Source: Candidatus Acidiferrum sp.
GTDB taxonomy: Bacteria; Acidobacteriota; Terriglobia; Acidiferrales; UBA7541
Assembly: GCA_036497825.1 (NCBI GenBank)
Contig: DASXIT010000134.1
Coordinates: forward strand, 17,936 to 81,935
Reading direction: 5' to 3'
DNA length: 64,000 nucleotides
Shown: one piece after another, positions 4,814-61,797 of the stretch
Layout of the letters: each line of letters begins with the position of its first letter
Position numbering within the stretch: the stretch's first letter is position 1
Program-made: the position numbers and the translations under genes
The notes under the pieces: model-generated
Database searches by the model: none
What the model was told of the DNA's origin: nothing
What the model saw: only the letters and a program-made list of their open reading frames with translations

Positions 4814-4856
4814 AACCCACCGCCAGAGGTGAATTGGCAGGTGGGTTTTTTGTTTT
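4814..4856 (+). terminator. Intrinsic terminator/attenuator in the cysD leader
   Basis: AACCCACC-GCCA (4814-4825) pairs with TGGC-A-GGTGGGTT (4835-4847), followed by a T-rich tract, about 30 nt before the cysD ATG. Confidence 0.8.
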
Positions 4857-4888
4857 TATACCAGCATTTCGAACAAGAGGACAGACCA

Positions 4889-44135: not shown

Positions 44136-44458
44136 GCATTCAATCCGTTTTTGTAATTCAAGAGATCAAAGGGAGGCCGCAAACAACCACCAACACATAA
44201 CGTTTAAACTGCCAGTAGTCAAATCTAGAATCCTAGGAAATAGGCTTCTCGAAGGTATCCTCCGAGTTCCATCGGACGGTAAGAACCCGCATCTGGCCAA
44301 TGCCTTTAGCGCCTCCTCCCGATTCCGATTGACTGCTGGTTGCTACCAATGTAGATTGTCCCAGATTGAATCGATTTAATGAATTCGGGGATTTGCCCAG
44401 AATAACTTGCTTGTATCATCTTATGGCCGGAACCAATCGTCGTAGAAAGGAACTTGTT

Positions 44459-46666
44459 GTGATCTTTACAATTGACGCTTCTTTTCTCGTCATTCGAATT
44501 TTTCGTCGCTGCTGCACACTTTTAGTGTGCCTTGCAGCGGCCAGCGGCCTTTCACCCGCAAACGCACAAATCATCCGCGTTGATACAAACCAAACTCATT
44601 CGACCAATGCGATTCGACCAACGAAAGCGCTCGGTGCAGGAATCGATCGTTTGCCATACGGTGCTGCCGACAAACTGTACGTCGATTCAACTCTAAAACA
44701 AGTTCTCGCCGCTGGTTGGCAAACCGTCACCTATCGCCAGAATACAGAACTCCATATGGAAGCCTGGCACTGGAATCCGCAAGGGACGTGGAGCGATCCC
44801 TCTGGAAAAGGTTACTTCACTGGCAGCACCTCTCCGGGACCAGAACCTATTCGTCATTCCTATGGTTATCCTTTGCCTCACCGCGGCGTGACACGTGACG
44901 ACGGAACCGACACTGTGGGCTATTCGCGTCTCACCGATGGCGATCCCAATTCCTACTGGAAGACCAATCCTTATCTCTCTTCAACATTCACAGGGGAGAG
45001 CGATTCACTTCACCCGCAGTGGGTGATCATCGATCTCGCAACTCGCCATGAAGTTAACGCCATTCGCATCGCATGGGCCGAGCCGTACGCTGTTCGCTAT
45101 GTCGTTCAATATTTCACCGGTACCGATCCCATAAAGAAACCGACCGAAGGTGTGTGGCAGACATTTCCCGGCGGAATTGTAACGAACGGTAAAGGAGGAC
45201 CCGCGCTCTTAAGCCTGGCTTCGACACCGCTTCTGGTCCAGCACCTCCGCATCCTGATGACAGAATCCTCCAACACCTGCGATATGCATGGAAACGCAGA
45301 CAAGCGCAATTGTCTCGGCTATGCGATTCGCGAGCTCTTCATTGGCACCACGACTCCCGACGGAAAATTCCACGATTTAGTCCGCCATACTCCCGACCAG
45401 GACCAGACCATGACGTTCTGCTCTTCCGTTGATCCCTGGCACGAACCCAGCGATTTGGAGGAAAAGGCTGGCGATCAAGTGGGGTTCGACCTTTTCTATA
45501 CCGGCGGTTACACTCGTGGCCTTCCCGCAATGATTCCCATCGCCATGATTTACAGCACTCCAGAGGACGCGGCTGCGGAAATCACCTATATCGAAAAACG
45601 CGGATATCCGATCTCGCACGTCGAGATGGGCGAGGAACCAGACGGGCATTACATGCCGCCGGAAGATTACGCCGCACTGTACATCCAGTTCGCAGCCGCC
45701 TTACATCGCGTCGACCCCAAACTCAAACTCGGCGGCCCCATCTTCACCGGCGTAAACAAAGATATCGAAACGTGGCCAGATTCCGAGGGGCGTACTTCTT
45801 GGACCCGTCGCTTCATCGATTATCTGCAGTCGCACGGGAAAATGAACGAACTGGCCTTCTTCTCCTTCGAACATTACCCGGAGGGGCCCGGCAAAATTCA
45901 GTGGAGCGATCTCTACCACGAAGCGGATCTTGTAACGAACATCATGAAAATCTGGCGGCAGGATGGCGTCCCGGAGAATGTGCCTCTTCTCATCACCGAG
46001 TCCAACATTTCCTGGGTCAGTTCCGAAGCGTTCGTGGACGTCTGGGGCGCTCTTTGGCTCGCCGATTATATTGGGGCATTTCTCAGCGCGGGCGGCGAAG
46101 CCGTTTACTATTTCCACTATTTGCCGCTAGGCGTTCATCACGGTGTGAATGGTTCCCTGGGTACTTTTGGGATGTTCTCGACCGATGGCGATCTCAAGAT
46201 TAAGCAGCCACTTTCTCAATATTTCGCGAGTCAACTGATCACTTTGGAGTGGTTGCAACCCGGCGACACTGTGAACACACTCTACTCTGCAGAGAGCGAC
46301 GTTCGGGATGCGGCCGGCAATCGCCTGATCACGGCGTACGCCGCAGCAAGACCGGACGGCACTTGGTCATTGATGGTCATCAACAAGGATCAAGAAAACG
46401 CGCATACGGTTCAAATTGCATTTGCGGATGATTCGCGCAATCTAAAAGAGGAATTCTCCGGTCCCGTTAGCGTGAAGACCTTCGGTAGCGCGCAATATAC
46501 CTGGCATCCATTGCTCAACGGTGGAACCGCTGACCCGGACGGCCCCATTGCGGTTTCCAGCGTGGCCGCCAGCCCAGGCAGTTCCTTTATTCTTCCTGCT
46601 GCTTCCATTACGGTTCTCCGCGGAAACATCAAATCCTCGGAGAATTCGGCAAGGTCGAAACACTAG
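44459..46666 (+). CDS. Secreted clan GH-A-like glycoside hydrolase with inserted discoidin (F5/8C, CBM32-like) domain
   Basis: Signal peptide, DGDPNSYWK...QWVIIDL discoidin, EMGEEPD, KLGGP, FEHYP, ITESN, C-terminal LPAASITVL beta-sandwich. Start uncertain. Confidence 0.75.
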   Translation: MIFTIDASFLVIRIFRRCCTLLVCLAAASGLSPANAQIIRVDTNQTHSTNAIRPTKALGAGIDRLPYGAADKLYVDSTLKQVLAAGWQTVTYRQNTELHMEAWHWNPQGTWSDPSGKGYFTGSTSPGPEPIRHSYGYPLPHRGVTRDDGTDTVGYSRLTDGDPNSYWKTNPYLSSTFTGESDSLHPQWVIIDLATRHEVNAIRIAWAEPYAVRYVVQYFTGTDPIKKPTEGVWQTFPGGIVTNGKGGPALLSLASTPLLVQHLRILMTESSNTCDMHGNADKRNCLGYAIRELFIGTTTPDGKFHDLVRHTPDQDQTMTFCSSVDPWHEPSDLEEKAGDQVGFDLFYTGGYTRGLPAMIPIAMIYSTPEDAAAEITYIEKRGYPISHVEMGEEPDGHYMPPEDYAALYIQFAAALHRVDPKLKLGGPIFTGVNKDIETWPDSEGRTSWTRRFIDYLQSHGKMNELAFFSFEHYPEGPGKIQWSDLYHEADLVTNIMKIWRQDGVPENVPLLITESNISWVSSEAFVDVWGALWLADYIGAFLSAGGEAVYYFHYLPLGVHHGVNGSLGTFGMFSTDGDLKIKQPLSQYFASQLITLEWLQPGDTVNTLYSAESDVRDAAGNRLITAYAAARPDGTWSLMVINKDQENAHTVQIAFADDSRNLKEEFSGPVSVKTFGSAQYTWHPLLNGGTADPDGPIAVSSVAASPGSSFILPAASITVLRGNIKSSENSARSKH

Positions 46667-46715: not shown

Positions 46716-48026
46716 TTACTCTTTTGTGGAAATAATTTCCGGCACTTGCGGCAGTCTGCGGTTTGGATCTACCAAAAGCCACGCCAAAGCTCCCATAACA
46801 CTCAGGGCCGCGGCGACGTGAAAAGATGAATTCCACCCATACTGCTTGGCAATCGCTGGCGTCAACGAAGCCGTCAATGCTCCGCCAAGTTGCCCACCCA
46901 TGTTCATGAATCCGGAGGCTGCGCCCGCACTACGTCCAGCAATATCCGCAGTCACCGACCAATAGGAACTCTGCGAGAGATACAATGCGCCCGCACCTCC
47001 GGAAAGTACCACGCTCGCCAGGCGTGCATTTTCCGCGTGCGAACCTAAGACGAGAAAGAACCCGGCAAGCAAGAGTGAAAACACTCCCACACTGCACCGT
47101 CCCACCCGCTTTCCGTGTGATTTAGTTAATGCGTCGCTGATCGCTCCGCCCAACAAACTGCAGGTAACCATCGCGATCGGAGGAATCGTGCTGTAAAACG
47201 CGCTGGCCTTTAAATCTAGTCCGCGCACCTTCAGCAGATAAATGTAAAACCAACTGAAAAAAATCCAGGCTACGTACCCGAAACAAAAATAACTAAGCGT
47301 CACGCCCCACACTTCTTTGCTTCGAAGAATTTTTTTCCAGGTTGTCTTTCCGTCCCGGGTCGCAGAAGCATCAATCCCCGCCGTCCGGTTGTCCTCGATG
47401 TACTTGAGCTCTGTTGCAGAAACGTGTGAATGCTCTTCCGGATTATCACGAGCCGCGACGAACCAGACTGCACCGACCAGCAATCCCAACACTGCGCTGA
47501 CCCAGAACGACGCTCGCCACCCGTAATGGACCATAATATAGGTCACAATTACCGGTGCAGCTCCTGCTCCGGCGCCAACTCCGGCGAAGATCAATCCGTT
47601 GGCGATTCCTCTTTCTTGCGTGGGAATCCATCGCGACACAAATTGATTCGAAGCGGGAAAGATAATGGCTTCTCCCGCTCCGAGCAAAAATCTCACGAGA
47701 ACAAACAATAGAATTGCCCCCGCAAGCGTTGTGGATACCGCTGCTGTCAGCGCCGTAAACACCCCCCACCAGGCCACACCCGCCGTTAAAACTCGGCGGG
47801 GTCCCAGCCGGTCCGCGAGCCATCCTCCAGGTGTCTGAAAGAGTGCGTACCCGATCAGGAACGCGCTGAAAACCAATCCAAGTTGCGTCTGTTGTAAATG
47901 AAACTCTTCCGCAATCGAACTTCCCGCGATGGAGATGTTCACTCGATCCAGATACGACACAGCACTCAGCACAAAGAGCCAAAACACAAGAAACCAGCGC
48001 ACCTTGCCCGTGCCGCGAGCTATCAT
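46716..48026 (-). CDS. MFS transporter, anion:cation symporter (sugar-acid; GudP/DgoT-like)
   Basis: SYLDRVNISIA, GWLADRLGPRR, RFLLGAGEA, ERGIANG, MNMGGQLGG. Confidence 0.88.
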   Translation of the reverse strand: MIARGTGKVRWFLVFWLFVLSAVSYLDRVNISIAGSSIAEEFHLQQTQLGLVFSAFLIGYALFQTPGGWLADRLGPRRVLTAGVAWWGVFTALTAAVSTTLAGAILLFVLVRFLLGAGEAIIFPASNQFVSRWIPTQERGIANGLIFAGVGAGAGAAPVIVTYIMVHYGWRASFWVSAVLGLLVGAVWFVAARDNPEEHSHVSATELKYIEDNRTAGIDASATRDGKTTWKKILRSKEVWGVTLSYFCFGYVAWIFFSWFYIYLLKVRGLDLKASAFYSTIPPIAMVTCSLLGGAISDALTKSHGKRVGRCSVGVFSLLLAGFFLVLGSHAENARLASVVLSGGAGALYLSQSSYWSVTADIAGRSAGAASGFMNMGGQLGGALTASLTPAIAKQYGWNSSFHVAAALSVMGALAWLLVDPNRRLPQVPEIISTKE

Positions 48027-48094: not shown

Positions 48095-49372
48095 TTACGC
48101 TGAATGCACCTTGAGATATGCCGACAGCTTCTCCGCGATGATCTTGTCTTCCCCCGGCTTCAGCATGAATGAGTTCATCGACAACGCGGGGCTCTCCTCG
48201 CCCGCCGAAAGCACAATCGCTGGCTTCCCTTGCCGCAGCGCCTTCACAACTTCCCGCGGAGTGACTGTGATCCGTTTGTCCCAGTGAATTTCCATATGCG
48301 GCACGTGATTTGCCATGTCCGGCATCGAAAACATTGTCGTCACACCAGGAATCTTCACCAGTTCGCTGGAAATCAATTCAAGTCGCCCCTGCCATTCCTT
48401 GTTCAGCTCCTCGTGGTCTTCCTTCAAATAGCACTCCAGTGCCTTCACCATTCCTACGATCTCTTCCTTGCCCACTTTCTGGCTTCGCCCAAGTGTGTCC
48501 TCATGCGGTGAGTTGTTGAGCAGAGCATTGGCCACTATCTCTGTTCGTCCCAGCAGCAGTCCCGCGCATTGTGGCCCGCGAATCGCTTTCCCGCCACTAA
48601 ATGCCACCATGTCGTATCCCATATTCACATAGTCCCAAAGATGCGAGACCGGCGGAGTATCCGCCGCAGCATCAATAAACGTGGGAATTTTGTATTCCTT
48701 CGCCAGATTCACCCACTCCTCCACTTTTATCTGTCCCGCAGCATTCGCAAAATTGCTGAAGTGCATCATGGCTGTCTGCGGTCCCACTGCACGCCGCAAA
48801 TCTTCGCGCGTTTCGATTACCACAAGCTTGATTCCCGTCGCTCGCAATTGATGATCGAAAGGGTTCCGGTGCGATTTTTGAATAATCACTTCCGATTTCA
48901 TTCCTGTAAGATCCGGAAGCTGCTCGATGAATTTCGGATTATTCCCCGTAAGTAGTCCTGCAAGCCCGGACTGCATCGCCGCAGCCGCACCGGAAGTCAC
49001 CAGCGCGGTGTAGCCCGGTGGAAGCTTAAGCATTTCCGCGATGCGCTTTCCGGCCGCAACTTCAAGATCCGGAATGCTCACGAAATGTTGCCCCGCCATG
49101 TCCATTACCGCATCGACCTCCGGCCGCATCAGAGAACCGCCGAGCACCGTCATCGTCCCTTGGCCGTTGATCAGCGTAGTGACCCCGAGCTCTTCATACA
49201 CGTTTCCCGTTGAGCCGAATCCTGTCACCGTGGTTTGGGGCGCTGGGTTCGACGCAGTCACAGTCACGGGCGCCGCGAGCAATTTACGCGCATTTAGCAG
49301 CGCTCCCACCAACGCGCTGATTCCACCGACAAACATTCGTCGCGACCACTTTGTGCTGATCTCCATTGCCAT
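48095..49372 (-). CDS. SelA-like PLP-dependent enzyme (DgaE-like ammonia-lyase) with Tat signal
   Basis: SRRMFV twin-arginine motif, INGQGTMTVLGGS, VTSGAAAA, IDAAA, FSGGKAIRGPQ (PLP Lys), KVGKEEIVG. Confidence 0.82.
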   Translation of the reverse strand: MAMEISTKWSRRMFVGGISALVGALLNARKLLAAPVTVTASNPAPQTTVTGFGSTGNVYEELGVTTLINGQGTMTVLGGSLMRPEVDAVMDMAGQHFVSIPDLEVAAGKRIAEMLKLPPGYTALVTSGAAAAMQSGLAGLLTGNNPKFIEQLPDLTGMKSEVIIQKSHRNPFDHQLRATGIKLVVIETREDLRRAVGPQTAMMHFSNFANAAGQIKVEEWVNLAKEYKIPTFIDAAADTPPVSHLWDYVNMGYDMVAFSGGKAIRGPQCAGLLLGRTEIVANALLNNSPHEDTLGRSQKVGKEEIVGMVKALECYLKEDHEELNKEWQGRLELISSELVKIPGVTTMFSMPDMANHVPHMEIHWDKRITVTPREVVKALRQGKPAIVLSAGEESPALSMNSFMLKPGEDKIIAEKLSAYLKVHSA

Positions 49373-49384
49373 GTCTCCTCTCCG

Positions 49385-49891
49385 TTACTTGCGCAGTACC
49401 GCCGCCGTGCAGTTGATTTCCACCAGCGACTGTCCAGGAAGCGCCGCCACGGCGACCGTCGTCCTGGCCGGCCCGCCATTCGGAAAGTACGTCTTGAAAA
49501 CTTTGTTCATTCCGTCGTAGTCGTCAATCTTGGTCAGGTAAACCGTGAGCTGCAGTATGCTGTCCATCGTTCCGCCGCCGGCCTCAACTAGCGTCTTCAC
49601 ATTGTCCATCACCTTTTTTGTGTGTACCCCAATCTCCATCGCGAAATCGCCGTTCGGATCATGCGAGTGCGCGCCCTGGCCCGCGATGTAAATCACACCG
49701 CTGTGAATGATCAGCGGCGTAATGAATCCAGTTCCGGCTGGCTTGCCTTCGTAGTCCAGCTTCTGTACTCCGCTCGCCACCTGGGCCATTGTCGGTTCTG
49801 CATCGGGTAGCAAACTGGCCGCGCCAACTCCCGTGAAAAGTGCTGCCAATCGAGCCGCGAAACCTCTCCGTGTACTAAATGTCGAAAACAT
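49385..49891 (-). CDS. RidA/YjgF family imine deaminase with Tat signal
   Basis: TRRGFA twin-arginine motif, IYIAGQ, VYL...DYDGMN.VF..YF, PART (catalytic Arg), VEI. Confidence 0.85.
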   Translation of the reverse strand: MFSTFSTRRGFAARLAALFTGVGAASLLPDAEPTMAQVASGVQKLDYEGKPAGTGFITPLIIHSGVIYIAGQGAHSHDPNGDFAMEIGVHTKKVMDNVKTLVEAGGGTMDSILQLTVYLTKIDDYDGMNKVFKTYFPNGGPARTTVAVAALPGQSLVEINCTAAVLRK

Positions 49892-49929: not shown

Positions 49930-51569
49930 TCAAGGCAACCGGAAGCAGAAAATATCGCTGCCTGCCGCAATCGCTACATGTTGAATCCCGTTCACAGAAT
50001 AACTCATTGGCGATGCATGAATGTTTTGGCCAGTCTGAAAATGCCACAGCGGCACGCCAGACCGCGCGTCGGCCGCCTCGAATGAGCTGGCCGAATCGCC
50101 AAAAAAAAACGATTCCGCCTTCTGTCGTCATTGTTCCTCCACTCGAATGATCCGCGCCCACCTGCGGATATTTCCACACAGGAACGCTCGCTCCCAGTTC
50201 ATACGCCAGCAAAATCTTTTTTCCAGCGTCTCCGGGACTTTTCTTTACACCGGTCGCATAATACGTGTGCCCCTTGGAAAACTGCTCTGGTTTCAAGAAA
50301 TACATATCGCAATTTTCCGATGCAAGAAAATAGAACAGGCGTGTCGCTGGATTGTAGGAAGGCGCATACCAATTCGTCGCGCCCCCCAAACCCCGGACAA
50401 ACACGCGTGCCATTCCGTGAAGGCATTACATCCGTGCGAATCGGCCGTCCCTTCTCGTCGATTCCCTTTGCCCAATTGAGCTTTTCCACAAACGGCACCG
50501 CTGAAAGAAAGGCGCCGTTCGTCCGGTCAAGAACATAAAGAAATCCGTTGCGGTTGGCTTCTACCAGTAGCTTGCGAGGCTCTCCCTTATACACCGCATC
50601 AATCAGCACTCCCGTTTCGGTCGCGTCATAATCATACAGGTCGTGCGGTGTGAACTGGAAATACCATTTCAACTTGCCCGTGTCAGGATCGAGAGCAAGC
50701 ACGCAATCCGTGTAGATATCGTCGCCTGGCCGCGGCCCTCCGTCGAAATCCGGCGACGGATTGCTTGTACCCCAATACAAAGTGTTCAACTCCGGGTCAA
50801 AGGTTCCGGGCATCCACGTAGTCCCACCTCCATGCTTGTACAAATCGCCCGGCCAGCTCGACGATCCTGCCTCGCCAGGTCCAGGAATCGTCCAGAATCG
50901 CCACGCAAGCTTTCCCGTTTCCGCATCGATTGCGGCTAAAAAGCCGCGGACTCCATCGTCTCCCCCGGACGTGCCAACAAGGACCTTGTCTTTCACCACG
51001 AGAGGTGCGCTCGTCGCTCCGTAGTTCTTGTTTCCGTCGGTGTACGGCACATCCCACAGCAAATGTCCCGATCGCGCATCCAGGCAGAGCAGATGTGCGT
51101 TGTCCGTCAGCATGTACACTCGCGAATGCCAAACTCCCACCCCGCGATTGTGGTGCTGCGCAGCATCGTCGATCAGTCCTTCTGTCACCGGTCGCGCGTA
51201 GTGCCAGATGATCCGGCCCGTCTGGCTATCCAGAGCATACGCATCGTTTGCCGATGTCACGAACATCAATCCATCGACGACCACCGGCGTTACCTCGAGT
51301 GCATCGGAATGCGGCGCATGAAACACCCAAGCTGCGCGCAAATTGCCAACATTGTTCACATTGATCTGGCTCAATGCGCTGTAACGCCGCCCGGTGTAGT
51401 CACCGTTATACGACAACCAGCTAGTGCCGACCGGTTGAGCGGCAAGTTGTGCAGCCTGTACATCAACCTTCACGGAAATAGAGTTCTGCTCGGGCACTTG
51501 AGCGTCCGCGCCACCGGCAATCCATCCACATAACAAAACTACTTGCACCGCGAATTGATCCCACCGCAT
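49930..51569 (-). CDS. PQQ-dehydrogenase-like beta-propeller quinoprotein, two +1 frameshifts in homopolymers
   Basis: Signal peptide, W.SYNGDY.G.RYS, TPVVVDG, TPHDLYDYD, NRNG..YVLDR. The frame is restored by removing one G (C6 at 50382-50387) and one T (A9 at 50101-50109), giving CPGFGGATNW...FFGD...WHFQTG...ASPMSY. Confidence 0.85.
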
Positions 51570-51574
51570 CTTTT

Positions 51575-51880
51575 CTACAAGCCTCCGGATTTCGGCTGCA
51601 CATTTGCGCTTCCCAGTTCTCCGCAATCGATCCCCCGCAAATTCACAATGTTGCCACCTAATTGCGGAACAATCACTACCCTCAACCACGCTTGCCATCC
51701 TTCAAACACCGTCGACTCGATTTTGCACGGCGCGGCGAATCCATTCGCTGTCTGTCCAGGTGACGCTGCGGAAACAAAAGCCGAAATCAGAAAAAACGAA
51801 AGGGCGCGCACTGCAATTCCACGGACCTCGACTCGAATTGTCCGTGGAGGCTGCCCTTCGATAATGAAATCCCGCTTCAT
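51575..51880 (-). pseudogene. Probable truncated remnant of a secreted aldose-epimerase/DUF4380-like protein
   Basis: Signal peptide, then CKIESTVFEGWQA-WLRVVIVPQLGG and an early stop. Family resemblance is from memory only. Confidence 0.4.
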
Positions 51881-51894
51881 CAGATAAGAACCCC

Positions 51895-52680
51895 TTACAA
51901 TCGCCCAAATTTCTTCACCGCTTCTTCGATCGACTTCAATTTTTCAATCCAGGCGTACATGGAATGCTCTTTGAAGTCCATCTCTTGCGCCAGGGTCAGC
52001 ACTTTTTCCGCCTCCGCGCGTGGCACGACCACTACTCCATCCGCGTCGGCCACCACGATGTCCGCGGGTTTCACTTCGACACCATCACAAATAACCGGGA
52101 TATCCGCACCGTCGAAGCGGTAGTGATGCACCGAGGTCGAAGGAACAATTCCCAGCGCATAAACGGGAAACCCGATCTTCTGCAGATAGGCCACGTCGCG
52201 CACACCCCCATTGATCACCGCCCCAGAAAAATCTCGTGCAGACATAGCCGTTCCCATCAAGCCGCCCATCCCCGCAATATCCGCACCGTCTTCCACCACC
52301 ATCACATAAACCGAATTGGGCGCTCCTCGGTCAATCGCAGCCAGCATGCCATTTAGTGCCTGCGGATCGTCATTAGTTTCCTTTTTCAACCTGACCGTCA
52401 CCGCGTATCCGGCAAACTTTGTTGGGAAAATCGGGCGCATCCGGTGCGTCATGTACATTCGCTTTCCCGTAAGCTGTTCCAGAGCGTCGGACACCGATGC
52501 GACTTCCACATGCCGGTAACCATCTAGAAGAGAGGCGCTTTCCTGTTTTGCGTGTGGTTCCTGGCCCGCCCGCGCGGCCCGCGCCCAAGCAATCCCGCCT
52601 AGGACTGTCAAAACAACTAGTCCACTTGCAACAATTTTGTGGATCGAATGGTGTTCTTTCCTATGACGTTCTGTATTCAT
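51895..52680 (-). CDS. RraA/HMG-aldolase family protein with N-terminal signal peptide
   Basis: IVASGLVVLTVLGGIAWARA signal, VSDAL, FAGYAVTV, GGVRD, GFPVYA, DIVVADADGVVVVP. Confidence 0.85.
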   Translation of the reverse strand: MNTERHRKEHHSIHKIVASGLVVLTVLGGIAWARAARAGQEPHAKQESASLLDGYRHVEVASVSDALEQLTGKRMYMTHRMRPIFPTKFAGYAVTVRLKKETNDDPQALNGMLAAIDRGAPNSVYVMVVEDGADIAGMGGLMGTAMSARDFSGAVINGGVRDVAYLQKIGFPVYALGIVPSTSVHHYRFDGADIPVICDGVEVKPADIVVADADGVVVVPRAEAEKVLTLAQEMDFKEHSMYAWIEKLKSIEEAVKKFGRL

Positions 52681-52775
52681 GACCTTCTCCCACATCAGCA
52701 GTTGCAGACTCTACCGCAACTTCCCTCGCTCGCGAAGTGCTTTTCCGAATTCCAGGAAACCAGCGGAAAAATGAG

Positions 52776-52918: not shown

Positions 52919-55900
52919 ATGCGTGTTTATTTCGCTCCAACGCTTGTCGTGGTTATCCTATTTCTCATAGCCATTCCCGCCTGGCCCAGCATTAACGGCA
53001 GTATCTCCGGTATCGTGACCGATCCGAGCGGCGGTGTTGTGACCGGGGCCCAAGTGGTCGCGATCGAAACTCAGACCCAGGTACGCACCGAAGTAACCAC
53101 CGACTCGAAAGGTTTCTTCAATTTTCCTACGCTTCCCATCGGCAACTACACCATAGAAATTCATGCCAATGGTTTTAAGACCTACAAGCAAGAAGGACTG
53201 GCCATTGACGCAAACTCTGCTCTTCGCGTGGATGCGACTTTGCAGCTGGGCCAGGCCACCGAGGAAGTTTCTGTTACCAGCGACGCCGTCCGGGTTGAGA
53301 CGCAAAGCACGCAAATGGGTGAAGTGATCAGCGGTTCCCGCATGACCGCTGTCCCCCTCAACGGCCGCGCCTACACCGATCTTCTTTCCCTTCAGCCCGG
53401 CGTCGTCCCCTCCGCCTATGGATCCACGGCGCCAGGTATGAACGACCGCTCGCCATCCGGTGCGCCGGCTTCAACTGGCGGTGGTGGACTTAATTCGGGC
53501 AATCAATCGGTCAATGGTCAGCGAGAAGCCGCAAATGGCTTCATGGTGAACGGCTCTAACGTTACGGAGGGAAAGAATAACGGCGCGGCGGTTATTCCTA
53601 ATCTTGATTCGATTTCTGAATTCCGGATCATCACGAATAATTTTGATGCGGAGTACGGAAACTTCAGTGGCGGCCAAATTAACGTTGCCACCAAATCCGG
53701 TACCAATGCCATCCATGGGAGCGCATTCGAATTCGTACGCAACACTGCTCTCAACGCGCGGAATTTCTATAATCCGACTTCCTCGGGCCCGAAAGGCGAG
53801 TTTAATCAGAATCAGTTTGGCGGCACTGTTGGAGGGCCCATCAAGAAGGACAAAGTTTTCGTCTTTGTTGATTATCAGGGAACGCGACAGACTCAAGGCA
53901 GTACGGTCAATACTGTCGTGCCCACCGCTGCAGACCGCACTGGGAATCTGACAGATCTCGCTTCTTCCCTTTCGAGTGCCTACGCCGCATCTTTGCAACC
54001 GGGCGGGTCACCTGCCGGTACGGTTCAGGGAGCACAGATGGCCGCAAATCTCTCCGCTGCTCTGGGCTACTCCGTAAGTACGGGGGAACCGTACTATTAC
54101 GGCGTTGGAGCGAACCCGAACAATATGACGAACGTGTGCACAAGTGGCACAGGGGCAAATCCTTGCGTCTTCCCAAATGCGCAGATTCCCATGACTGCAA
54201 TCCAACAACTCTCTCCGCCGGCTGCAGCTCTCCTGCAGGGATCCTTTATTCCGCAAGGTGATCCAATCACGGGTGCCTTCACGACATCAGCTTTCGCCAA
54301 CACATTGAATGACGACAAGGGTGGCATTCGTGTGGACGCCAATACGCATTTGGGATCCTTCTTCGCTTACTATTTTATCGACAACTACAGTGAGAACGAT
54401 GCGTACCCGAACGGTGGGGCTACTGTTCCGGGCTATAACGGACTTTCTCTTGGCCGCGCGCAATTAGTAAATCTTGGCTTTACCAAGACCGTCAACGCGA
54501 CCAGCGTGAATGAATTCCATTTCAGCTATACCCGAAACGCCGCCAATCTTTTCACTCCGCAGGGTGGTCTGGGCCATTCTCTGACTTCTCTTGGGTTTAC
54601 TGCTGCCAATTGTCCGGCAAATGCTCCAACAGCTGGTTGTCAATTCAACGGCGGCATCTTGGCCACGAGCCCCAGTCTCGAGGGTGTGCCCAACATCGTG
54701 TTTAATAACTATACGATCGGCGTGCCGGCCGATACCGTGGGCCAATTCAACAATACCTTCCAGTGGCAAGACGTCTTTTCCAAGATCATCGGCCCGCACA
54801 GCCTCCGGTTCGGCGGCCAATATCATTACGACCAGATCAACGAGCGGAATTATTACGGAGAAAATGGACAATATACGTTTAACGGAAACGAAACTGGAGT
54901 TGATTTCGCGGACTTCCTGATCGGTGCTCCGGTTAGCTTCATCCAGGCGAGCCATCAGGTTCTCGATTCTCGCTCGCAGTATCTCGGACTCTTTATTCAG
55001 GACAGTTGGCGCGTAAAGCCCAGTTTCACTTTCAACTACGGTTTGCGTTACGAAATCAGCCTCCCGTGGTATGACACGCAGAACAAAATCGAGACCATCA
55101 TTCCCGGCGAGCAATCCGTTGTCTTCCCGACCGCTCCCACAGGCTGGCTCGTGCCGGGGGATCCAAATGTTCCTCGCACTCTTGCTCCGCCCAAGTACAA
55201 CGCCTTTTCTCCCCGTCTCGGCATCGCCTATTCGCCGGATTCGACCGATGGATTCCTCGCCAAACTTACCGGTGGGCCCGGCAAAACCAGTATTCGCGCC
55301 GGCTTTGGAATCTATTACACCTCCGTCGAGGATCTGAGCCAATTCTTGGAAGTCGGCGATCCTCCGTATGGAATATTCTGGGTATCCAGTGCACCGCCCT
55401 TCTTTTCAACGCCATTTCTTTCTCGCATGGACAATAGTGTCGAAACAGCTTCCGGCACGAATCCCTTTCCATTCGTGTTTCCCCCAACGAACGTTTCTGC
55501 GAAGAACCCAGACTCGTCCTTTCCATGGCAAAACGTAGAACCAATCTCCAGCGGCTTCGTGTTCTGGCATCAAAATCGGATGCCCTATTCGGAACACTAC
55601 GAGCTTTCTCTGCAAAGACAGTTCGGGTCGAGCACCGTGGTAAGCGCAAGTTACGTGGGCAACCAGGGTCACAAATTAATCACTTCAATTGAAGCGAATC
55701 CGGGGAGCGCCTCGATTTGTAACCAGGTGAATCAACTTGTAGGCTCTGGGACGTGCGCTCCCTTTGGCGAGAACACGCAATACACACAACCCACCGGCAC
55801 ACCCACCATCCCGGGCGCTTTCTACATTCAGGGAACGAATACCATCACCGGCACGCGAACTGTTCTCAATCCGACCTCTTTTGGCAGCAATCCCTATATG

Positions 55901-56617
55901 AAGGAAATCGCCAACTCCGCGTACAACTCTTTCCAAGCCAGCGTCCGCCATTCCAGCGCCCGAGGAGAATTCCTCTTTGGATATACTGTCAGCAAGTGCC
56001 TGGACAACTCCTCCGGCTTGCAGGACACTACCAATCCTTTTAATACGCGGCTTAGCCGCTCGCTCTGCTCCTTTAACGTCACGCAGAATTTTGTCGCTAG
56101 TTACGACGTAAATTTTCAACTGGAAAAGCTATTCCATGCCGACCATGGCTTTGCGAACAAAATCTCAGCAGGTTGGTCGCTCTCTGGCATCACCACCTTC
56201 GCGACTGGTCTGCCGATTACACTTTCAGAAAACGATGACAACTCTCTGACTGGCGCCGTTGGCGTTGATGTCCCGCAGCTAAGCGGTACCGGAAGTCTCT
56301 TCACGAACAAGAATCCCCGCTCTGGTCAGCCATACTTCAATCCGGGTTACTTCACAACTGAGCCTCTCGGCCAGATCGGGAACGCCAACCGGCGATTTTT
56401 CTCCGGCCCGGGCTTGAACAACTGGGACATAGCCCTGCTCAAGAGTACGAATTTCACTGAATCCAAGGTTTTGCAATTGAGGTTTGAGACCTTCAACACC
56501 TGGAATCACGCACAATTCGAAAACCCGACCGGCGTAATCAACAGCAGTCTGTTCGGTGTGGTAACCAACGCGCGCTCTGCCCGTGTCATGCAGGTGGGCG
56601 CAAAATTCTTGTTTTAG
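52919..56617 (+). CDS. TonB-dependent receptor, Oar/acidobacterial type
   Basis: Signal peptide, VPLNGRAYTDLLSLQPG, FDAEYG, FEFVRNTALNARN, C-terminal RVMQVGAKFLF. Confidence 0.92.
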   Translation: MRVYFAPTLVVVILFLIAIPAWPSINGSISGIVTDPSGGVVTGAQVVAIETQTQVRTEVTTDSKGFFNFPTLPIGNYTIEIHANGFKTYKQEGLAIDANSALRVDATLQLGQATEEVSVTSDAVRVETQSTQMGEVISGSRMTAVPLNGRAYTDLLSLQPGVVPSAYGSTAPGMNDRSPSGAPASTGGGGLNSGNQSVNGQREAANGFMVNGSNVTEGKNNGAAVIPNLDSISEFRIITNNFDAEYGNFSGGQINVATKSGTNAIHGSAFEFVRNTALNARNFYNPTSSGPKGEFNQNQFGGTVGGPIKKDKVFVFVDYQGTRQTQGSTVNTVVPTAADRTGNLTDLASSLSSAYAASLQPGGSPAGTVQGAQMAANLSAALGYSVSTGEPYYYGVGANPNNMTNVCTSGTGANPCVFPNAQIPMTAIQQLSPPAAALLQGSFIPQGDPITGAFTTSAFANTLNDDKGGIRVDANTHLGSFFAYYFIDNYSENDAYPNGGATVPGYNGLSLGRAQLVNLGFTKTVNATSVNEFHFSYTRNAANLFTPQGGLGHSLTSLGFTAANCPANAPTAGCQFNGGILATSPSLEGVPNIVFNNYTIGVPADTVGQFNNTFQWQDVFSKIIGPHSLRFGGQYHYDQINERNYYGENGQYTFNGNETGVDFADFLIGAPVSFIQASHQVLDSRSQYLGLFIQDSWRVKPSFTFNYGLRYEISLPWYDTQNKIETIIPGEQSVVFPTAPTGWLVPGDPNVPRTLAPPKYNAFSPRLGIAYSPDSTDGFLAKLTGGPGKTSIRAGFGIYYTSVEDLSQFLEVGDPPYGIFWVSSAPPFFSTPFLSRMDNSVETASGTNPFPFVFPPTNVSAKNPDSSFPWQNVEPISSGFVFWHQNRMPYSEHYELSLQRQFGSSTVVSASYVGNQGHKLITSIEANPGSASICNQVNQLVGSGTCAPFGENTQYTQPTGTPTIPGAFYIQGTNTITGTRTVLNPTSFGSNPYMKEIANSAYNSFQASVRHSSARGEFLFGYTVSKCLDNSSGLQDTTNPFNTRLSRSLCSFNVTQNFVASYDVNFQLEKLFHADHGFANKISAGWSLSGITTFATGLPITLSENDDNSLTGAVGVDVPQLSGTGSLFTNKNPRSGQPYFNPGYFTTEPLGQIGNANRRFFSGPGLNNWDIALLKSTNFTESKVLQLRFETFNTWNHAQFENPTGVINSSLFGVVTNARSARVMQVGAKFLF

Positions 56618-56708
56618 CAGTGGCGGACCAAAATAATTTGGCGCTTCATCAGGCCATAAACGCCGAGTGCGCCCTCCGAGTAAGTATTTGAAAGAGAGCT
56701 TCTCTTCC

Positions 56709-57557
56709 ATGTACGCGCGTCGCATCCACAAGATAGCAAGTGCAGTTGTCTGCGCAATTTTGGCCTTGGCCCGTGGCACTTACACTGCCCAGACTGCGCC
56801 ACAGTCAAGAATTATGCGGGCGCAACAACAAACAACGTCTGGCCGCGCCACTTTCGAATCGACTTGCGCGGCCTGCCATGGTCTTGACGGCCAAGGTGGC
56901 GAGCGCGGCCCCAACATTGCCTCACGCCGCGAGGTCCTTCGACTCTCCGACTCTGAACTGCTCAAAATTCTTCACGACGGAATTCCTTCCGCCGGCATGC
57001 CTCCTTTTGCTTCCCTCGGCAGCGCCAAGCTTGCCGCTCTCGTCGCCTATGTCCGCACGCTCCAAGGGAACGGAAAAGTCGTCGCAATTCCCGGGGATCC
57101 GCAAAAAGGCAAACAACTCTTCTTCGGCTCTAGTCGCTGCTCGGAATGTCATATGGTTCGCGGAAAAGGAGGTTTCGTCGCCGCCGATCTTTCCCATTAC
57201 GCCGCGACTCTCTCTCTGCCCGAAATCCGCGCCGCGATCACCAATCCCGGGATCGATTCTCCGCAGCGCAGCACTCTCATCGCCGTCATTCTGCACAATG
57301 GCCAAGTGGTCGAGGGTGTCATTCGAAACGAAGACAATTTCTCGCTCCAGTTGCAATCTCTCGACGGAACCTTCCATCTCTTTCAGAAATCAGACATCGC
57401 TAAAGTCGAGCCTCACGCGCAAACCCTGATGCCTTCGGATTACGCCTCCACCCTCACTGCTGCTCAGCTCGATGATTTGATCGGATATCTGATGACCGTT
57501 GCCCGGGAAACGAAAGGCGCGTCCTCTGGCAAACCAAACTGGGAGGACGATGATTGA
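56709..57557 (+). CDS. Periplasmic diheme c-type cytochrome
   Basis: Signal peptide, CAACH and CSECH motifs, GMP and LMP axial Met candidates. Confidence 0.88.
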   Translation: MYARRIHKIASAVVCAILALARGTYTAQTAPQSRIMRAQQQTTSGRATFESTCAACHGLDGQGGERGPNIASRREVLRLSDSELLKILHDGIPSAGMPPFASLGSAKLAALVAYVRTLQGNGKVVAIPGDPQKGKQLFFGSSRCSECHMVRGKGGFVAADLSHYAATLSLPEIRAAITNPGIDSPQRSTLIAVILHNGQVVEGVIRNEDNFSLQLQSLDGTFHLFQKSDIAKVEPHAQTLMPSDYASTLTAAQLDDLIGYLMTVARETKGASSGKPNWEDDD

Positions 57558-57638
57558 TTCGTTCCTCAGTTTGCCTGGTCAACGAATGAGTTATTCAATC
57601 TCGCTCACCCACATTTCGACTCCCTTGAACAGGACACC

Positions 57639-58604
57639 ATGATGAAAAAACTCTGCCTCTTGACGCTAACTCTGTTTCTGCTGGCCATCCCTCTTCACGC
57701 GCAAGAGGCTAAACCTCCTAAGCGCCAGTTCCAGCTCAAAGCGGAATCCCCCCAATTCTGGAAATTTATTCCGCAAGACGCCAAGCTCGAAATGCTCGCC
57801 ACCGGATTTGGCTTCACCGAAGGCCCAGTTTGGGATCTAGCAGGGTTTGTTTATGTCAGCGACGAGGAACTCAATAAAATTTTCCGCGTCTATCCAGACG
57901 GCCACAAGGAAGTTCTCCTTTCGCTTGGCGATCCGGATGGCAACACCTACGATCAGCAGCATCGCCTCCTCGATTGCGCCAGCTATCTGCGTGCCATTAT
58001 CCGCATTACCCCTGACGGCCAATACACCACACTCGCGGATCACTTCGAAGGAAAGAAATTCAACAGCCCCAACGATGTCGTTGTCGGTCCTGATGACGCA
58101 ATCTATTTCACCGATCCTGCCCTGGATGTCCCTCCAGGTGAAAAACAGGAACTCACTTTCCAAGGCGTATATCGGCTAGACACAAACGGTAAGGTCACGC
58201 TACTGACCAAAGAACTCACCCAGCCCAACGGCCTGGCTTTCTCTCCCGATGGCAAACACCTGTATATAGACGATAGCCAGCAGCGTAACATCCGCGTTTA
58301 TGATTTTCTGCCGGGTGGGACGTTAGCTAACAGCCGCATCTTCGGTGAAGAACCGGGCGGCAAGGGCGATGGCGTTCCGGACGGCATGCGCGTCGATCGC
58401 GAAGGCAATCTCTACGTCACCGGCCCGGGCGGCATTTGGGTCTGGGATTCCCACGGCCAACATCTCGGCACAATCTTCCTGCCTGAGCAGCCTGCCAATC
58501 TCGCCTGGGGCGATCCGGATCTCAACACGCTCTACATTACTGCAACTACCTCAGTCTATAAGCTGAAAATTTCCGCCCAAGGTTTCGTCCCATATTTGAA
58601 ATAG
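57639..58604 (+). CDS. Secreted SMP-30/gluconolactonase family protein
   Basis: Sec signal (LLAIPLHA), FTEGPVW, NSPND, PNGLAFSPD, PDGMRVD. Confidence 0.9.
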   Translation: MMKKLCLLTLTLFLLAIPLHAQEAKPPKRQFQLKAESPQFWKFIPQDAKLEMLATGFGFTEGPVWDLAGFVYVSDEELNKIFRVYPDGHKEVLLSLGDPDGNTYDQQHRLLDCASYLRAIIRITPDGQYTTLADHFEGKKFNSPNDVVVGPDDAIYFTDPALDVPPGEKQELTFQGVYRLDTNGKVTLLTKELTQPNGLAFSPDGKHLYIDDSQQRNIRVYDFLPGGTLANSRIFGEEPGGKGDGVPDGMRVDREGNLYVTGPGGIWVWDSHGQHLGTIFLPEQPANLAWGDPDLNTLYITATTSVYKLKISAQGFVPYLK

Positions 58605-59402: not shown

Positions 59403-59452
59403 CGATTCACTCCCCCGAAAATAGTAGTGCGGAAGTCTGTTGCAGAGCAGGA

Positions 59453-60790: not shown

Positions 60791-60830
60791 CAACAAGCCG
60801 TCAAGCGACAAGAGCGACGGGCAACCATTG

Positions 60831-61595: not shown

Positions 61596-61682
61596 TTCTA
61601 AATCTCCTCTCGCAAAACCTTGGCGGATCGAGAGTGCAAACGATAGCAGCGTGCTTGCCCGGAAATCCGGCCCAAGAACCTT

Positions 61683-61707
61683 GACATCATATCAGACGCA
61701 TGATGTC
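61683..61707. promoter_or_regulatory. Palindromic operator candidate overlapping an extended -10 of the nagB unit
   Basis: GACATCAT-N9-ATGATGTC perfect inverted repeat. Minus-strand TGATATGAT at 61694-61686. Confidence 0.55.
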
Positions 61708-61797
61708 CTCTTCCTTTCAGCTGACAACAGAAGAACCTGCCTCGGGAAGGCATTGCTGTCCGCGTGTTTTAAAATCCAACTGGTCCAAGGGGAGAGA

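Follow-up and report, generated by a model that had tools for sequence, protein, structure and literature searches.

Introduction

Work on RidA has centered on how PLP enzymes of the cytoplasm and of organelles are shielded from stress of the 2-aminoacrylate type. Organellar RidA proteins exist; in bacteria, those investigated to date are, to our knowledge, cytoplasmic. The general statement that RidA is regarded as cytoplasmic, made in the first-pass annotation of the DNA described here, is too strong. A periplasmic RidA-like protein is also on record, the M-β subunit of an L-amino-acid oxidase complex in the periplasm of Chlamydomonas (PMC5053998). A 2015 survey of the Rid family makes no mention of the periplasm, signal peptides, or exported bacterial Rid proteins (Niehaus et al., 2015), and a 2026 review of Tat export does not mention exported bacterial Rid proteins either (PMC13673990). 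That review supports the premise that Tat exports cofactor-loaded proteins: PvdN and PtaA, two enzymes of pyoverdine maturation in Pseudomonas, are loaded with PLP in the cytoplasm and exported in folded form (Ringel et al., 2016, 2017; PMC13673990). Our literature search on PLP-dependent enzymes with a Tat signal in the periplasm returned no match.

Three described enzymes are relevant to the chemistry discussed below. The DGL (DgaE) of Salmonella converts D-glucosaminate-6-phosphate to KDG-6-phosphate and NH3; its His163, the C-3 proton donor, is strictly conserved in DGLs and is thought to prevent release of the reactive intermediate (PMC9529869). The Ong pathway for oxidized chitin (GlcNAc1A) in Pseudoalteromonas prydzensis ACAM 620 comprises the deacetylase OngB, the PLP deaminase OngC, the RidA protein OngD, and KdgK; OngC turns glucosaminate into KDG and NH3, and the RidA-family protein OngD is essential (PMC9537276). 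Cap15, from capuramycin biosynthesis, is an O2- and PLP-dependent monooxygenase-decarboxylase that acts on a β-hydroxy-α-amino acid borne on a sugar (PMC7497351).

Here, we describe a gene pair in a 64,000-nucleotide stretch of Candidatus Acidiferrum sp. DNA (hereafter the window). Both a PLP enzyme and its RidA neighbor carry Tat-type leaders, as predicted from sequence; pairing of a PLP deaminase with RidA is already known from the cytoplasmic Ong pathway. On balance, we think it probable that the pair performs a periplasmic β-elimination and deamination of a non-phosphorylated 2-amino-3-hydroxy (sugar) acid, in which RidA hydrolyzes the released enamine or imine.

Results

A RidA-like gene lies directly upstream of a PLP enzyme gene

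The RidA-like gene precedes the PLP enzyme gene on the reverse strand (Table 1), and the two are separated by 12 nt (49373-49384) rather than the 13 nt first reported. The initial description of two adjacent genes with good ribosome-binding sites is otherwise accurate: strong Shine-Dalgarno sequences stand before the upstream starts, i.e., AAGGAGAA 7 nt 5' of the RidA ATG and GGAGAGGAG 5' of the ATG of the PLP gene. In the PLP gene, M3 (49366) is no worse a start than M1 and is used by most homologs. The public call for this gene (P0001) is 413 residues long and begins at M13, 3' of the twin arginines.

Table 1. Features of the locus, in window coordinates.
Feature	Position	Strand	Remarks
RraA-like protein (HMG/CHA-aldolase family)	51895..52695	(-)	PF03737, E = 2e-35; hydrophobic N-terminal signal/anchor; first operon gene
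Quinoprotein dehydrogenase-like protein (acido-empty-quinoprotein group A)	49933..51698	(-)	TIGR04528, E = 1e-124
Rid-family (RidA-like) gene	49891..49385	(-)	ORF, 168 aa; predicted N-terminal Tat leader
Predicted RidA Tat leader, residues 1 to ~37	49781..49891	(-)	MFSTFSTRRGFAARLAALFTGVGAASLLPDAEPTMAQ; RR codons 49865-49870
SelA/DgaE-like fold-type-I PLP enzyme gene	49372..48095	(-)	ORF, 425 aa; predicted N-terminal Tat leader
Predicted PLP-enzyme Tat leader, residues 1 to ~34	49271..49372	(-)	MAMEISTKWSRRMFVGGISALVGALLNARKLLAA; RR codons 49337-49342
MFS transporter, D-galactonate/sugar-acid (ACS) type	46716..48026	(-)	MFS_1, E = 5e-73; TIGR00893, E = 4e-77; last operon gene
TonB-dependent-receptor-like outer-membrane barrel	52919..56617	(+)	OMP_b-brl_4, E = 5e-172, and CarboxypepD_reg; divergent
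Cytochrome c	56667-57557	(+)	Pfam
Exported SMP-30/gluconolactonase-like protein	57639-58604	(+)	Pfam
KduD	58638-59456	(-)	TIGR01832, 348 bits (cut-off 338.85); 9 kb from the pair

The PLP enzyme resembles DgaE and Cap15 more closely than SelA

The PLP enzyme has the fold-type-I, SelA-like architecture that its original label implied, but its sequence and fold scores place it closer to DgaE and Cap15 than to SelA, without full membership in any of these families. It scored 39 bits against the SelA (L-seryl-tRNA(Sec) selenium transferase) model TIGR00474 (cut-off 267.9), with residues 189-320 alone matching rather than the whole length with its N-terminal tRNA-binding domain, and SelA structures gave E values of about 1e-5 and TM scores of 0.43-0.46; a selenium link was rejected because SelA membership fails. 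The DgaE-family model TIGR01437 gave E = 3e-52 and 177.5 bits, below its cut-off of 385.3, and NF047797 gave 127.8 bits against a cut-off of 600. Among PDB entries, the enzyme matched DGL (7LC0, E = 5e-26) and Cap15 (8T7J, E = 1e-23), and these two also ranked first in a fold search with an AlphaFold model, in which Cap15 came top (TM 0.65-0.75). The model was built from 30 close homologs, had a mean pLDDT of 66, and was used for the fold search only.

Alignment confirmed the catalytic residues that had been picked out in both proteins at first pass. In the PLP enzyme, Lys262 in FSGGK (AAA, 48589..48587) aligns with the PLP-binding Lys213 of Salmonella DGL and is invariant in homologs, and R276 in LLLGR aligns with the α-carboxylate Arg226 of DGL, a position that is mostly Arg and sometimes Lys in homologs. 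The KSHH of DGL and of the DgaE proteins of C. difficile and E. faecalis aligns with FSNF (N207, F208), such that the His162/His163 loop is absent and the segment is two residues shorter; the His163 column holds Phe, in a somewhat uncertain alignment at 27% identity. To read this loop, we used a small alignment (A1) together with segments for which the PLP lysine served as the anchor; a 118-sequence MAFFT alignment misaligned the columns concerned. R300, R304, R335, and R349 of C. difficile DgaE, which are conserved in cytoplasmic DgaE proteins and which we take to be the phosphate-binding arginines, align with H356/M360, S389, and F402 and are not kept, although the C-terminal alignment shares the uncertainty of the loop and two alignments differ on one arginine column. 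Three DgaE-family genes on plasmids served as stand-ins for full-length Salmonella DGL, and equating these arginines with its phosphate cluster (Arg301, Arg332, Arg346) depends on an inferred numbering. The non-basic residues at these columns are consistent with a non-phosphorylated periplasmic substrate.

The pair is part of a conserved operon with predicted sugar-acid functions

The RidA-PLP pair belongs to a larger operon for putatively exported functions, which also contains the RraA-like, quinoprotein, and MFS genes, with the TonB receptor adjoining (Table 1). RidA stands directly upstream of the PLP gene in 79 of 80 related acidobacterial loci, mostly 3-33 nt apart. In nearly all 80, the pair is preceded by the RraA-like gene, and in most the MFS gene follows directly 3' of the PLP gene. 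The conserved order is thus RraA-like aldolase, (quinoprotein), RidA, PLP enzyme, and MFS sugar-acid transporter, beside a TonB receptor. TonB receptors recur both beside this operon and beside other exported SelA-like genes. The RraA-like leader is hydrophobic (Kyte-Doolittle 2.72), and HMG/CHA aldolases of this kind are annotated as aldolase/oxaloacetate decarboxylase in NF006731. The quinoprotein gene, present in about two-thirds of related loci and absent from about one-third, spans three frames with two frameshifts in the window (tblastn with the intact L001 orthologue). Farther along the locus is KduD, a KDG-specific enzyme. Genes for a NagB-like protein and glycoside-hydrolase-like proteins also occur in the locus, and an exported OngB-like amidohydrolase and an SGL lactonase are present in related loci.

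Homology and this gene context point to β-elimination as the reaction of the PLP enzyme. They do not secure it, because the scores lie far below the DgaE cut-offs and the fold is equally close to Cap15. The proposal of the first-pass annotation, of PLP β-elimination outside the cytoplasm with an imine-quenching partner, gains from the Tat-type leaders, the near-constant pairing, and the exported Rid proteins of relatives described below, but its chemistry is deduced from homology and context, and the same fold has also given rise to a decarboxylase.

Both proteins might be exported and the PLP enzyme nevertheless catalyze O2-dependent oxidative decarboxylation or deamination in the manner of Cap15 and PvdN, transamination in the manner of PtaA, or retro-aldol cleavage, with the Rid protein hydrolyzing the resulting imine or serving another role. 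Such a reaction would fit the proximity of Cap15, which equals that of DGL in fold and sequence, and the sugar-borne β-hydroxy-α-amino acid that Cap15 uses (PMC7497351); it would also fit the missing catalytic His-His loop and the known cases of Tat export among PLP enzymes, one of which is an oxidative decarboxylase and the other a transaminase. We nonetheless regard it as unlikely: a Rid partner is typical of enzymes from which enamines or imines are set free (dehydratases, ammonia-lyases, amino-acid oxidases), the combination of an RraA-like 4-hydroxy-2-oxo-acid aldolase with a sugar-acid MFS transporter and KduD suits a 2-keto-3-deoxy acid product, and Cap15 belongs to a secondary-metabolite pathway that has no such gene context.

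The chemistry and compartment that we favor could also serve a plain hydroxy-amino acid, e.g., D-serine, D-threonine, or 3-hydroxyaspartate, with the RraA-like protein acting on the keto acid as an oxaloacetate decarboxylase or pyruvate aldolase. The lactonase, quinoprotein, cytochrome c, KduD, NagB-like, and glycoside-hydrolase-like genes of the locus argue against these substrates, as do the exported amidohydrolase and SGL lactonase of relatives, which parallel the GlcNAc1A pathway. The NF006731 annotation covers both activities, OngC deaminates D-Ser and D-Thr as well, and the core of RraA, RidA, PLP, and MFS genes is independent of the sugar-oxidizing genes, which one-third of loci lack; even so, we judge an amino-acid substrate of this kind to be rather improbable.

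Both leaders have the features of conserved Tat signals

The twin-arginine leaders noted at first pass on both genes proved to be conserved features. In RidA, the arginines are residues 8-9 (CGG AGA; motif TRRGFA), and in the PLP enzyme residues 11-12 (CGA CGA; motif SRRMFV). Compared with S/T-R-R-x-F-L-K, both T-R-R-G-F-A-A and S-R-R-M-F-V-G match at positions 1-5 but not at the L-K positions. The motif [ST]RRxF is kept in 120 of 120 RidA homologs and W[ST]RRxF in 118 of 120 PLP homologs, the two exceptions being truncated gene calls; at genome loci that hold both genes, the RR motif is present in 79/79 PLP genes and, under a strict pattern, in 76/79 RidA genes. The rest of each leader drifts, with a mean majority-residue frequency in homolog alignments of 0.50 for the leader against 0.87 for the mature part of the PLP enzyme, and of 0.71 against 0.90 for RidA. 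After the arginines come 15 uncharged residues in RidA (Kyte-Doolittle 1.79) and 16 in the PLP enzyme (2.16), whereas Sec leaders of the same locus are more hydrophobic (2.7-3.4). C-region ends of the NARKLLAA and TMAQ/AAAQA types were seen among homologs. In the AlphaFold model of the PLP enzyme, residues 11-26 form a helix followed by a low-confidence linker (pLDDT < 50 for residues 1-97). The same genome encodes TatC (PF00902, 216.9 bits, contig C214).

The Tat call rests on motif, h-region, and homolog conservation. When the isolated leaders were searched against Pfam and NCBIfam, which should include the Tat-signal models TIGR01409 and PF10518, there was no match at E ≤ 10; this counts only weakly against the signals, such short models being insensitive. 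Taken across thousands of homologs, the sequences support the view that both leaders behave as genuine, selected Tat signals, and export of the pair appears very likely. With a leader on each of the two proteins, we rejected the idea that RidA leaves piggy-back on the PLP enzyme.

Relatives with Tat leaders fall in one clade, and Rid neighbors in the subclade of the window enzyme bear export signals

A 50%-identity representative library alone contains more than 4,000 relatives of the PLP enzyme. A phylogeny of Tat-bearing versus cytoplasmic homologs had been suggested by the first-pass annotation. Of the 118 full-length representatives, 45 have Tat leaders, and a single 66-sequence clade (support 97) contains all of these, with 10 label changes on the tree as against 34.7 with shuffled labels. 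Within the subclade of the window enzyme, an exported Rid neighbor occurred in all five contexts examined, bearing a Tat, Sec, or lipoprotein signal; this variety of signals supports, as independent evidence, an extracytoplasmic location. In one Sec-exported partner, three Rid domains are joined on one polypeptide. The Rid neighbor of a cytoplasmic relative (P0317) bears no leader. Three other exported subclades (P0264, P0276, and P0280) showed no Rid neighbor in the available context (0/3), and a pairing with Rid across the whole exported clade was rejected on that account. The orthologue is patchily distributed, being found in about 6 of 150 other genomes of the class (E ≤ 1e-40) and absent from two genomes of the same genus. 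A phylum-wide genome search at E ≤ 1e-120 recovered the window's own genome only, because that threshold was too strict.

It had been recognized at first pass that true starts 3' of the RR motifs would undo the export reading. The genes would then encode an ordinary cytoplasmic pair of DgaE-like lyase and RidA, with the RR N-termini untranslated or unused for export. The public call at M13 and the lack of a Tat-HMM match could be read in this way, and some cytoplasmic relatives do have Rid neighbors. Such downstream starts are nevertheless unlikely, because the alternative methionines, M13 in the PLP enzyme and M35 in RidA, are not conserved in homologs whereas the RR motif is, with RR-x-F upstream of them in about 99%. 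A start at M13 would still retain the hydrophobic leader, the Shine-Dalgarno sequences precede the upstream starts, and Rid partners in related loci bear Sec and lipoprotein signals, so that a wholly cytoplasmic pair seems very improbable.

The RidA-like protein retains the active-site arginine and glutamate of RidA

The RidA-like protein belongs to the Rid family (Pfam Ribonuc_L-PSP, PF01042; E = 4e-21, 75.6 bits, cut-off 27.3) and matches PDB RidA homologs at E = 3e-17, but it scores 77 bits against the RidA-subfamily model TIGR00004, below the cut-off of 106 (106.25). Its mature domain starts at about residue 38-45. Arg143 in GGPART (AGG, 49465..49463) shares its alignment column with the PAR arginine found in 2CSL and 3MQW, and both Arg143 and Glu158 are invariant in 120 homologs; the position equivalent to Tyr17 is Ile. 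We take Arg143 to correspond to Arg105 of Salmonella RidA, the arginine that separates the deaminase-competent RidA/Rid1-3 proteins from Rid4-7. Imine hydrolysis is predicted from this conserved active site. Enamines and imines hydrolyze spontaneously in water, so it is not self-evident that a periplasmic pathway needs RidA.

A structural, chaperone-like, or regulatory Rid partner, e.g., a non-catalytic one as proposed for Chlamydomonas M-β, would accord with the low subfamily score, the Ile at the Tyr17 position, the still undefined role of the essential OngD, and the several Rid paralogues that often flank a single PLP gene, but we hold it to be highly unlikely given an active-site Arg and Glu that are invariant in 120 homologs and separate leaders that make piggy-back export unnecessary.

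Discussion

A proposed periplasmic deamination route

Since both genes carry conserved twin-arginine signals, the deamination of amino (sugar) acids, known only from the cytoplasm, probably takes place in the periplasm here. Rid proteins are trimers in every solved structure known to us. Folding and cofactor loading of the PLP enzyme would take place in the cytoplasm before Tat export, probably with assembly into an oligomer as in the octameric DGL, and the Rid protein would also leave through Tat. The substrate is most likely a 2-amino-2-deoxy-aldonate, e.g., glucosaminate or galactosaminate, which could arise from an imported amino sugar oxidized by the neighboring quinoprotein dehydrogenase, cytochrome c, and lactonase. 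Removal of the β-hydroxyl by the PLP enzyme would release an enamine or imine, which the Rid protein would convert to a 2-keto-3-deoxy acid and ammonium. The exported RraA-like aldolase could then cleave this keto acid, or the MFS transporter could bring it into the cytoplasm to be metabolized there, in keeping with the KduD encoded nearby.

More tentatively, the locus may represent a widespread periplasmic deamination system in Acidobacteriota and other soil and sediment bacteria (metagenome contigs), in which the amino group of oxidized amino sugars would be removed non-phosphorylatively before the inner membrane, and in which imine hydrolysis of the RidA type would, for the first time in bacteria, be placed outside the cytoplasm. 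That this clade lacks the proton donor His163 of DGL would explain why a separate imine/enamine handler is retained. If the reading is true, an exported bacterial RidA beside an exported PLP lyase extends the idea of RidA protection to the periplasm; alternatively, RidA could be a true pathway enzyme rather than a housekeeper, paralleling the unexplained essentiality of OngD. A large catabolic family would also join the short list of PLP-carrying Tat cargoes, and abundant soil Acidobacteria would have a periplasmic, ATP-independent means of using amino sugars or oxidized chitin/chitosan products, which would bear on soil carbon and nitrogen turnover. Annotation masks this family: its members appear under the names 'seleniumtransferase' or 'aminotransferase class V-fold', and the start chosen in some gene calls, that of the window's own genome among them, lies 3' of the RR motif.

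Comparison with known systems

DGL is the best characterized sequence relative of the PLP enzyme, with the same fold-type-I SelA-like architecture and a common PLP lysine and carboxylate arginine, and DgaE/DgaF likewise pair a lyase with an aldolase on a 2-keto-3-deoxy acid. DgaE, however, is cytoplasmic, PTS-fed, and active on a 6-phosphate, and the three plasmid DgaE loci hold PTS, kinase, and KDGP-aldolase genes and no RidA; the window enzyme has a Tat leader, RidA, and an RraA-fold aldolase, without the His162/His163 loop and phosphate arginines. Cap15 is the top structural and second sequence match, but is a cytoplasmic secondary-metabolite enzyme that performs an O2-using decarboxylation outside any Rid, aldolase, or transporter context.

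The Ong pathway is similar in that a PLP deaminase is encoded with a RidA-family protein beside TonB receptors, and an OngB-like amidohydrolase occurs in relatives of the window's operon. It differs in that its catabolic enzymes all reside in the cytoplasm, OngC has fold type III and is not homologous to the PLP enzyme of the window, and KDG is phosphorylated, whereas the window has an RraA-like aldolase, quinoprotein, and lactonase and no deacetylase. For the export step, PvdN and PtaA, which are fold-type-I PLP enzymes, provide direct experimental precedent; they belong to other subfamilies, catalyze siderophore-tailoring reactions, and are not known to have a Rid partner or a catabolic operon. 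The window's Rid protein shares with RidA/Rid1-3 proteins, for which Salmonella is the paradigm, the fold, the active-site Arg and Glu, and a partner enzyme of the (here predicted) imine-releasing kind, and is set apart by its own Tat leader and by a score below the RidA-subfamily cut-off. The M-β subunit of Chlamydomonas shows that the cytoplasm is not the only place where a Rid protein can work.

Twin-Arginine Leaders of the Rid Protein and PLP Enzyme

The RidA-like protein and the adjacent SelA/DgaE-like PLP enzyme begin with the sequences MFSTFSTRRGFAARLAALFTGVGAASLLPDAEPTMAQ and MAMEISTKWSRRMFVGGISALVGALLNARKLLAAP, respectively. As proposed in the first-pass annotation, both carry twin-arginine leaders, and the motifs are highly conserved. 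Among the 120 best homologs of the PLP enzyme (73–96% identity), 118 contain, around residue 9, the motif W-[ST]-R-R-x-F; its RidA equivalent, [ST]-R-R-x-F around residue 8, occurs in all 120 homologs. The two PLP homologs lacking the motif (P0001 and P0019) are shorter gene calls. P0001 is the public call for the PLP gene of this genome and spans 413 aa, starting at M13 just past the twin arginines (49337–49372); P0019 is similarly truncated. When a call starts beyond the twin arginines, annotation pipelines miss the Tat leader. The possibility raised earlier that the real starts lie downstream of the twin arginines appears unlikely: neither M13 of the PLP enzyme nor M35 of RidA, the internal methionines at which shorter products might begin, is conserved among homologs.

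Apart from the RR-x-F core, no part of either leader is invariant. For the PLP enzyme, the mean majority-residue frequency falls from 0.87 in the mature part to 0.50 in the leader, and for RidA from 0.90 to 0.71; a targeting peptide would be expected to vary in this way around a fixed core. Each twin arginine is followed by 15–16 uncharged residues with Kyte-Doolittle values of 1.8–2.2, lower than those of the Sec-type leaders of the same locus (2.7–3.4), as is usual for Tat signals. The source genome contains a gene for TatC. Curated Tat-signal HMMs matched neither leader. These sequence patterns indicate that both leaders are real, selected signals, and the pair is very probably exported.

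A Conserved Gene Pair Within a Putative Sugar-Acid Locus

The source genome is acidobacterial (5.0 Mb, 234 contigs) and the closest loci are from 'Candidatus Acidoferrales' and other Acidobacteriota MAGs. Five minus-strand genes lie head to tail, in the order RraA-like protein, quinoprotein, Rid protein, PLP enzyme, and MFS transporter. Shine-Dalgarno sequences precede both the RidA and PLP genes, confirming the good ribosome-binding sites reported previously; the two genes are indeed close together, though separated by 12 nt from stop to start rather than the 13 nt first given. Divergent from the operon are genes for a TonB-dependent-receptor-like barrel, a cytochrome c, and an exported SMP-30/gluconolactonase-like protein, the latter two being partners to be expected for a periplasmic sugar dehydrogenase. 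The quinoprotein of relatives is a single open reading frame of ~557 aa. Both frame shifts in the window copy fall in homopolymer runs, i.e., G6 near 50385 and a nine-base T/A run near 50105, and could reflect assembly error or pseudogenization.

Coordinates of genes at the locus, ordered by position in the window
Feature	Coordinates	Strand	Remarks
Large exported protein	44366–46666		F5/8-type-C (discoidin) domain, weak GH39-like similarity; brackets the locus; paralog of 61543–63999
MFS transporter, D-galactonate/sugar-acid type	48026..46716	minus	
SelA/DgaE-like PLP enzyme	49372..48095	minus	425 aa
Rid-family protein	49891..49385	minus	168 aa
'Acido-empty-quinoprotein' dehydrogenase-like gene	51698..49933	minus	Frame-shifted; read in three frames (51539–50382, 50392–50102, 50109–49933)
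RraA-like aldolase-family protein	52695..51895	minus	N-terminal hydrophobic leader
Cytochrome c and SMP-30/gluconolactonase-like protein	56667–58604	plus	3' of TonB receptor; cytochrome c with two CxxCH motifs (CAACH, CSECH); lactonase-like protein with Sec signal
KduD, 2-dehydro-3-deoxy-D-gluconate 5-dehydrogenase (SDR)	58638–59456	minus	Above curated TIGR01832 cut-off
Second sugar-acid MFS transporter	59453–60811		After KduD
NagB-like protein (weak)	60831–61595		After second MFS transporter
Large exported protein	61543–63999		As for 44366–46666

Synteny was compared across 80 genome loci encoding relatives (68–92% identity). RidA is directly upstream of the PLP gene in 79 of these, mostly with gaps of 3–33 nt. 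In these paired loci, every one of the 79 PLP genes encodes the RR motif, and the strict RR-x-F pattern fits 76 of the 79 RidA genes. Nearly all 80 loci have an RraA-like gene upstream and an MFS gene downstream, approximately two thirds contain the quinoprotein gene, and TonB receptors and GH-like discoidin proteins recur near the operon in related loci. Homologs of the bracketing discoidin proteins themselves lie beside the operon in several of them. The ortholog is patchily distributed: of 150 other genomes in the class, ~6 have it, and two congeneric genomes lack it. SelA/DgaE-like paralogs number up to 10 per genome in the class, with 8–10 in G395, G322, and other genomes, pointing to a large radiation with diversified substrates. 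The source genome has one close copy only, together with a distant 505-aa relative on another contig (C105).

Rid Partners Are Predicted to Be Exported by Different Routes

In the subclade of the window, every readable context contains a Rid neighbor predicted to be exported, although by varying routes. At locus L087 (2015–5133), one Tat lyase is ringed by three Rid genes, two with Tat signals and one of lipoprotein type. The Rid neighbor has a Sec signal at L089 and a Tat signal at L093, the latter alongside an amidohydrolase and a lactonase, both with Sec signals, and a second lyase with a Tat signal; the YjgF-like neighbor at L095 also has a Tat signal. Two further loci, L004 (4205–5458) and L005 (4210–5463), encode a 417-aa Sec-leader protein with three tandem Rid (PF01042) domains, i.e., a single-chain pseudo-trimer, as would be expected if a trimeric fold had to pass Sec unfolded. 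Its gene overlaps, at the start, with the stop of a SelA-like paralog, the second to carry a Tat signal. One of the two Tat-leader Rid proteins at L087 has a Gly/Arg-rich insert, and quinoprotein, RraA, and MFS neighbors are present there as in the window.

For the leaderless relative P0317, the YjgF/Rid neighbor is also leaderless. The Rid partner appears to change compartment along with the lyase, and its predicted export by differing routes to the same compartment provides independent evidence for a periplasmic location. In the available flanking DNA, no Rid gene was found beside three Tat-bearing members of other subclades, near which TonB receptors are present; hence the pairing is not universal.

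Placement and Evolution of the PLP Enzyme

The PLP enzyme is a fold-type-I protein. It matches the capuramycin biosynthesis enzyme Cap15 (PDB 8T7J; E = 1e-23, TM 0.65–0.75), and SelA (selenocysteine synthase) is a much more distant match; the enzyme is nearer to DgaE and Cap15 than to the SelA of the original 'SelA-like' label. It also falls far under curated DgaE cut-offs. We aligned it with three plasmid DgaE-family proteins, whose genes adjoin PTS, kinase, and KDGP-aldolase genes but no RidA, and with a fragment from a PDB search of the closest characterized sequence relative, Salmonella DGL, an ammonia-lyase for D-glucosaminate-6-phosphate (PDB 7LC0; E = 5e-26). The PLP-binding Lys213 of DGL is kept as K262, in line with the earlier assignment of a catalytic lysine, and Arg226, which binds the alpha-carboxylate, is kept as R276. 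The KSHH loop containing His162 and His163 is replaced by FSNF in a loop two residues shorter, and the phosphate-binding Arg301, Arg332, and Arg346 (about R300, R335, and R349 in the C. difficile protein) by His/Met, Ser, and Phe. His163 is the donor of the C-3 proton in DGL and is proposed to keep a reactive intermediate from being released (Phillips et al., PMC9529869). Loss of this residue and of the phosphate pocket, as read from alignments at 27% identity, would be expected of a lyase that acts on a non-phosphorylated substrate in an ATP-free compartment and leaves its enamine/imine to a Rid protein of its own.

In a search across 1.84 billion cluster representatives, 4,354 relatives were recovered. 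A Tat motif is present in 45 of 118 full-length representatives, and 63 are leaderless. The phylogeny of Tat-bearing vs. cytoplasmic homologs suggested by the first-pass annotation, rooted with true DgaE proteins, placed all 45 Tat-bearing representatives inside one clade of 66 (support 97). Every basal group lacks a leader, and the leader label changes 10 times on the tree vs. 34.7 for shuffled labels. Several 'leaderless' members of this clade may stem from truncated gene calls in metagenomes. It follows from the tree that export arose early in a large radiation, within which the PLP enzyme is predicted to use Tat nearly always; this fits cofactor loading and oligomerization in the cytoplasm.

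Proposed Mechanism and Relation to Known Systems

Taking the signals, catalytic residues, synteny, and family placement together, we infer a sequence of reactions for the locus. The TonB receptor would admit an amino sugar or oxidized amino sugar, from which the quinoprotein, cytochrome c, and lactonase, where present, would yield a 2-amino-2-deoxy-aldonate. The Tat-exported lyase would remove the 3-hydroxyl and RidA would hydrolyze the resulting enamine/imine to a 2-keto-3-deoxy acid and ammonium. The RraA-like protein, which falls in the family of 4-hydroxy-2-oxo-acid aldolases, may cleave this product; alternatively, the MFS transporter may import it for cytoplasmic enzymes such as KduD. 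We lean slightly toward this full mechanism of a periplasmic lyase with RidA. Its weakest link is the reaction type, since the PLP enzyme can instead be read as performing O2-dependent chemistry: Cap15, of the same fold, is a monooxygenase-decarboxylase that depends on O2 and PLP and acts on glycyluridine (PMC7497351). The substrate could also be a simple hydroxy-amino acid, and the spontaneous hydrolysis of imines makes a periplasmic need for RidA less self-evident. The original interpretation, PLP-dependent beta-elimination outside the cytoplasm with an imine-quenching partner, is hence partly supported: export is likely, but the reaction type and substrate stay conditional, with Cap15 chemistry as a rival.

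A functional precedent for a PLP deaminase acting with RidA is the cytoplasmic Ong pathway, which comprises the deacetylase OngB, the PLP deaminase OngC, which converts glucosaminate to KDG and NH3, and the RidA protein OngD, which is essential for growth for reasons unknown (PMC9537276). In contrast to the Ong enzymes, the pair in the window carries Tat leaders. At three related loci (L006, L007, and L012; ~2600–5470), the RraA gene is preceded by an amidohydrolase with a Sec signal and by a SelA-like paralog (42% identity), the second with a Tat signal, an arrangement resembling the deacetylase-plus-deaminase logic of that pathway. For export, a precedent is provided by PvdN and PtaA, PLP enzymes carried by Tat (PMC13673990). 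RidA had been regarded as cytoplasmic, and we came across no report of bacterial Rid proteins being exported, nor mention of one in the 2015 Rid survey (Niehaus et al.) or a 2026 Tat review; however, a Rid protein located outside the cytoplasm is known, in the periplasmic L-amino-acid oxidase of Chlamydomonas (PMC5053998). The predicted exported Rid and lyase pair would extend these known kinds rather than constituting a new category.
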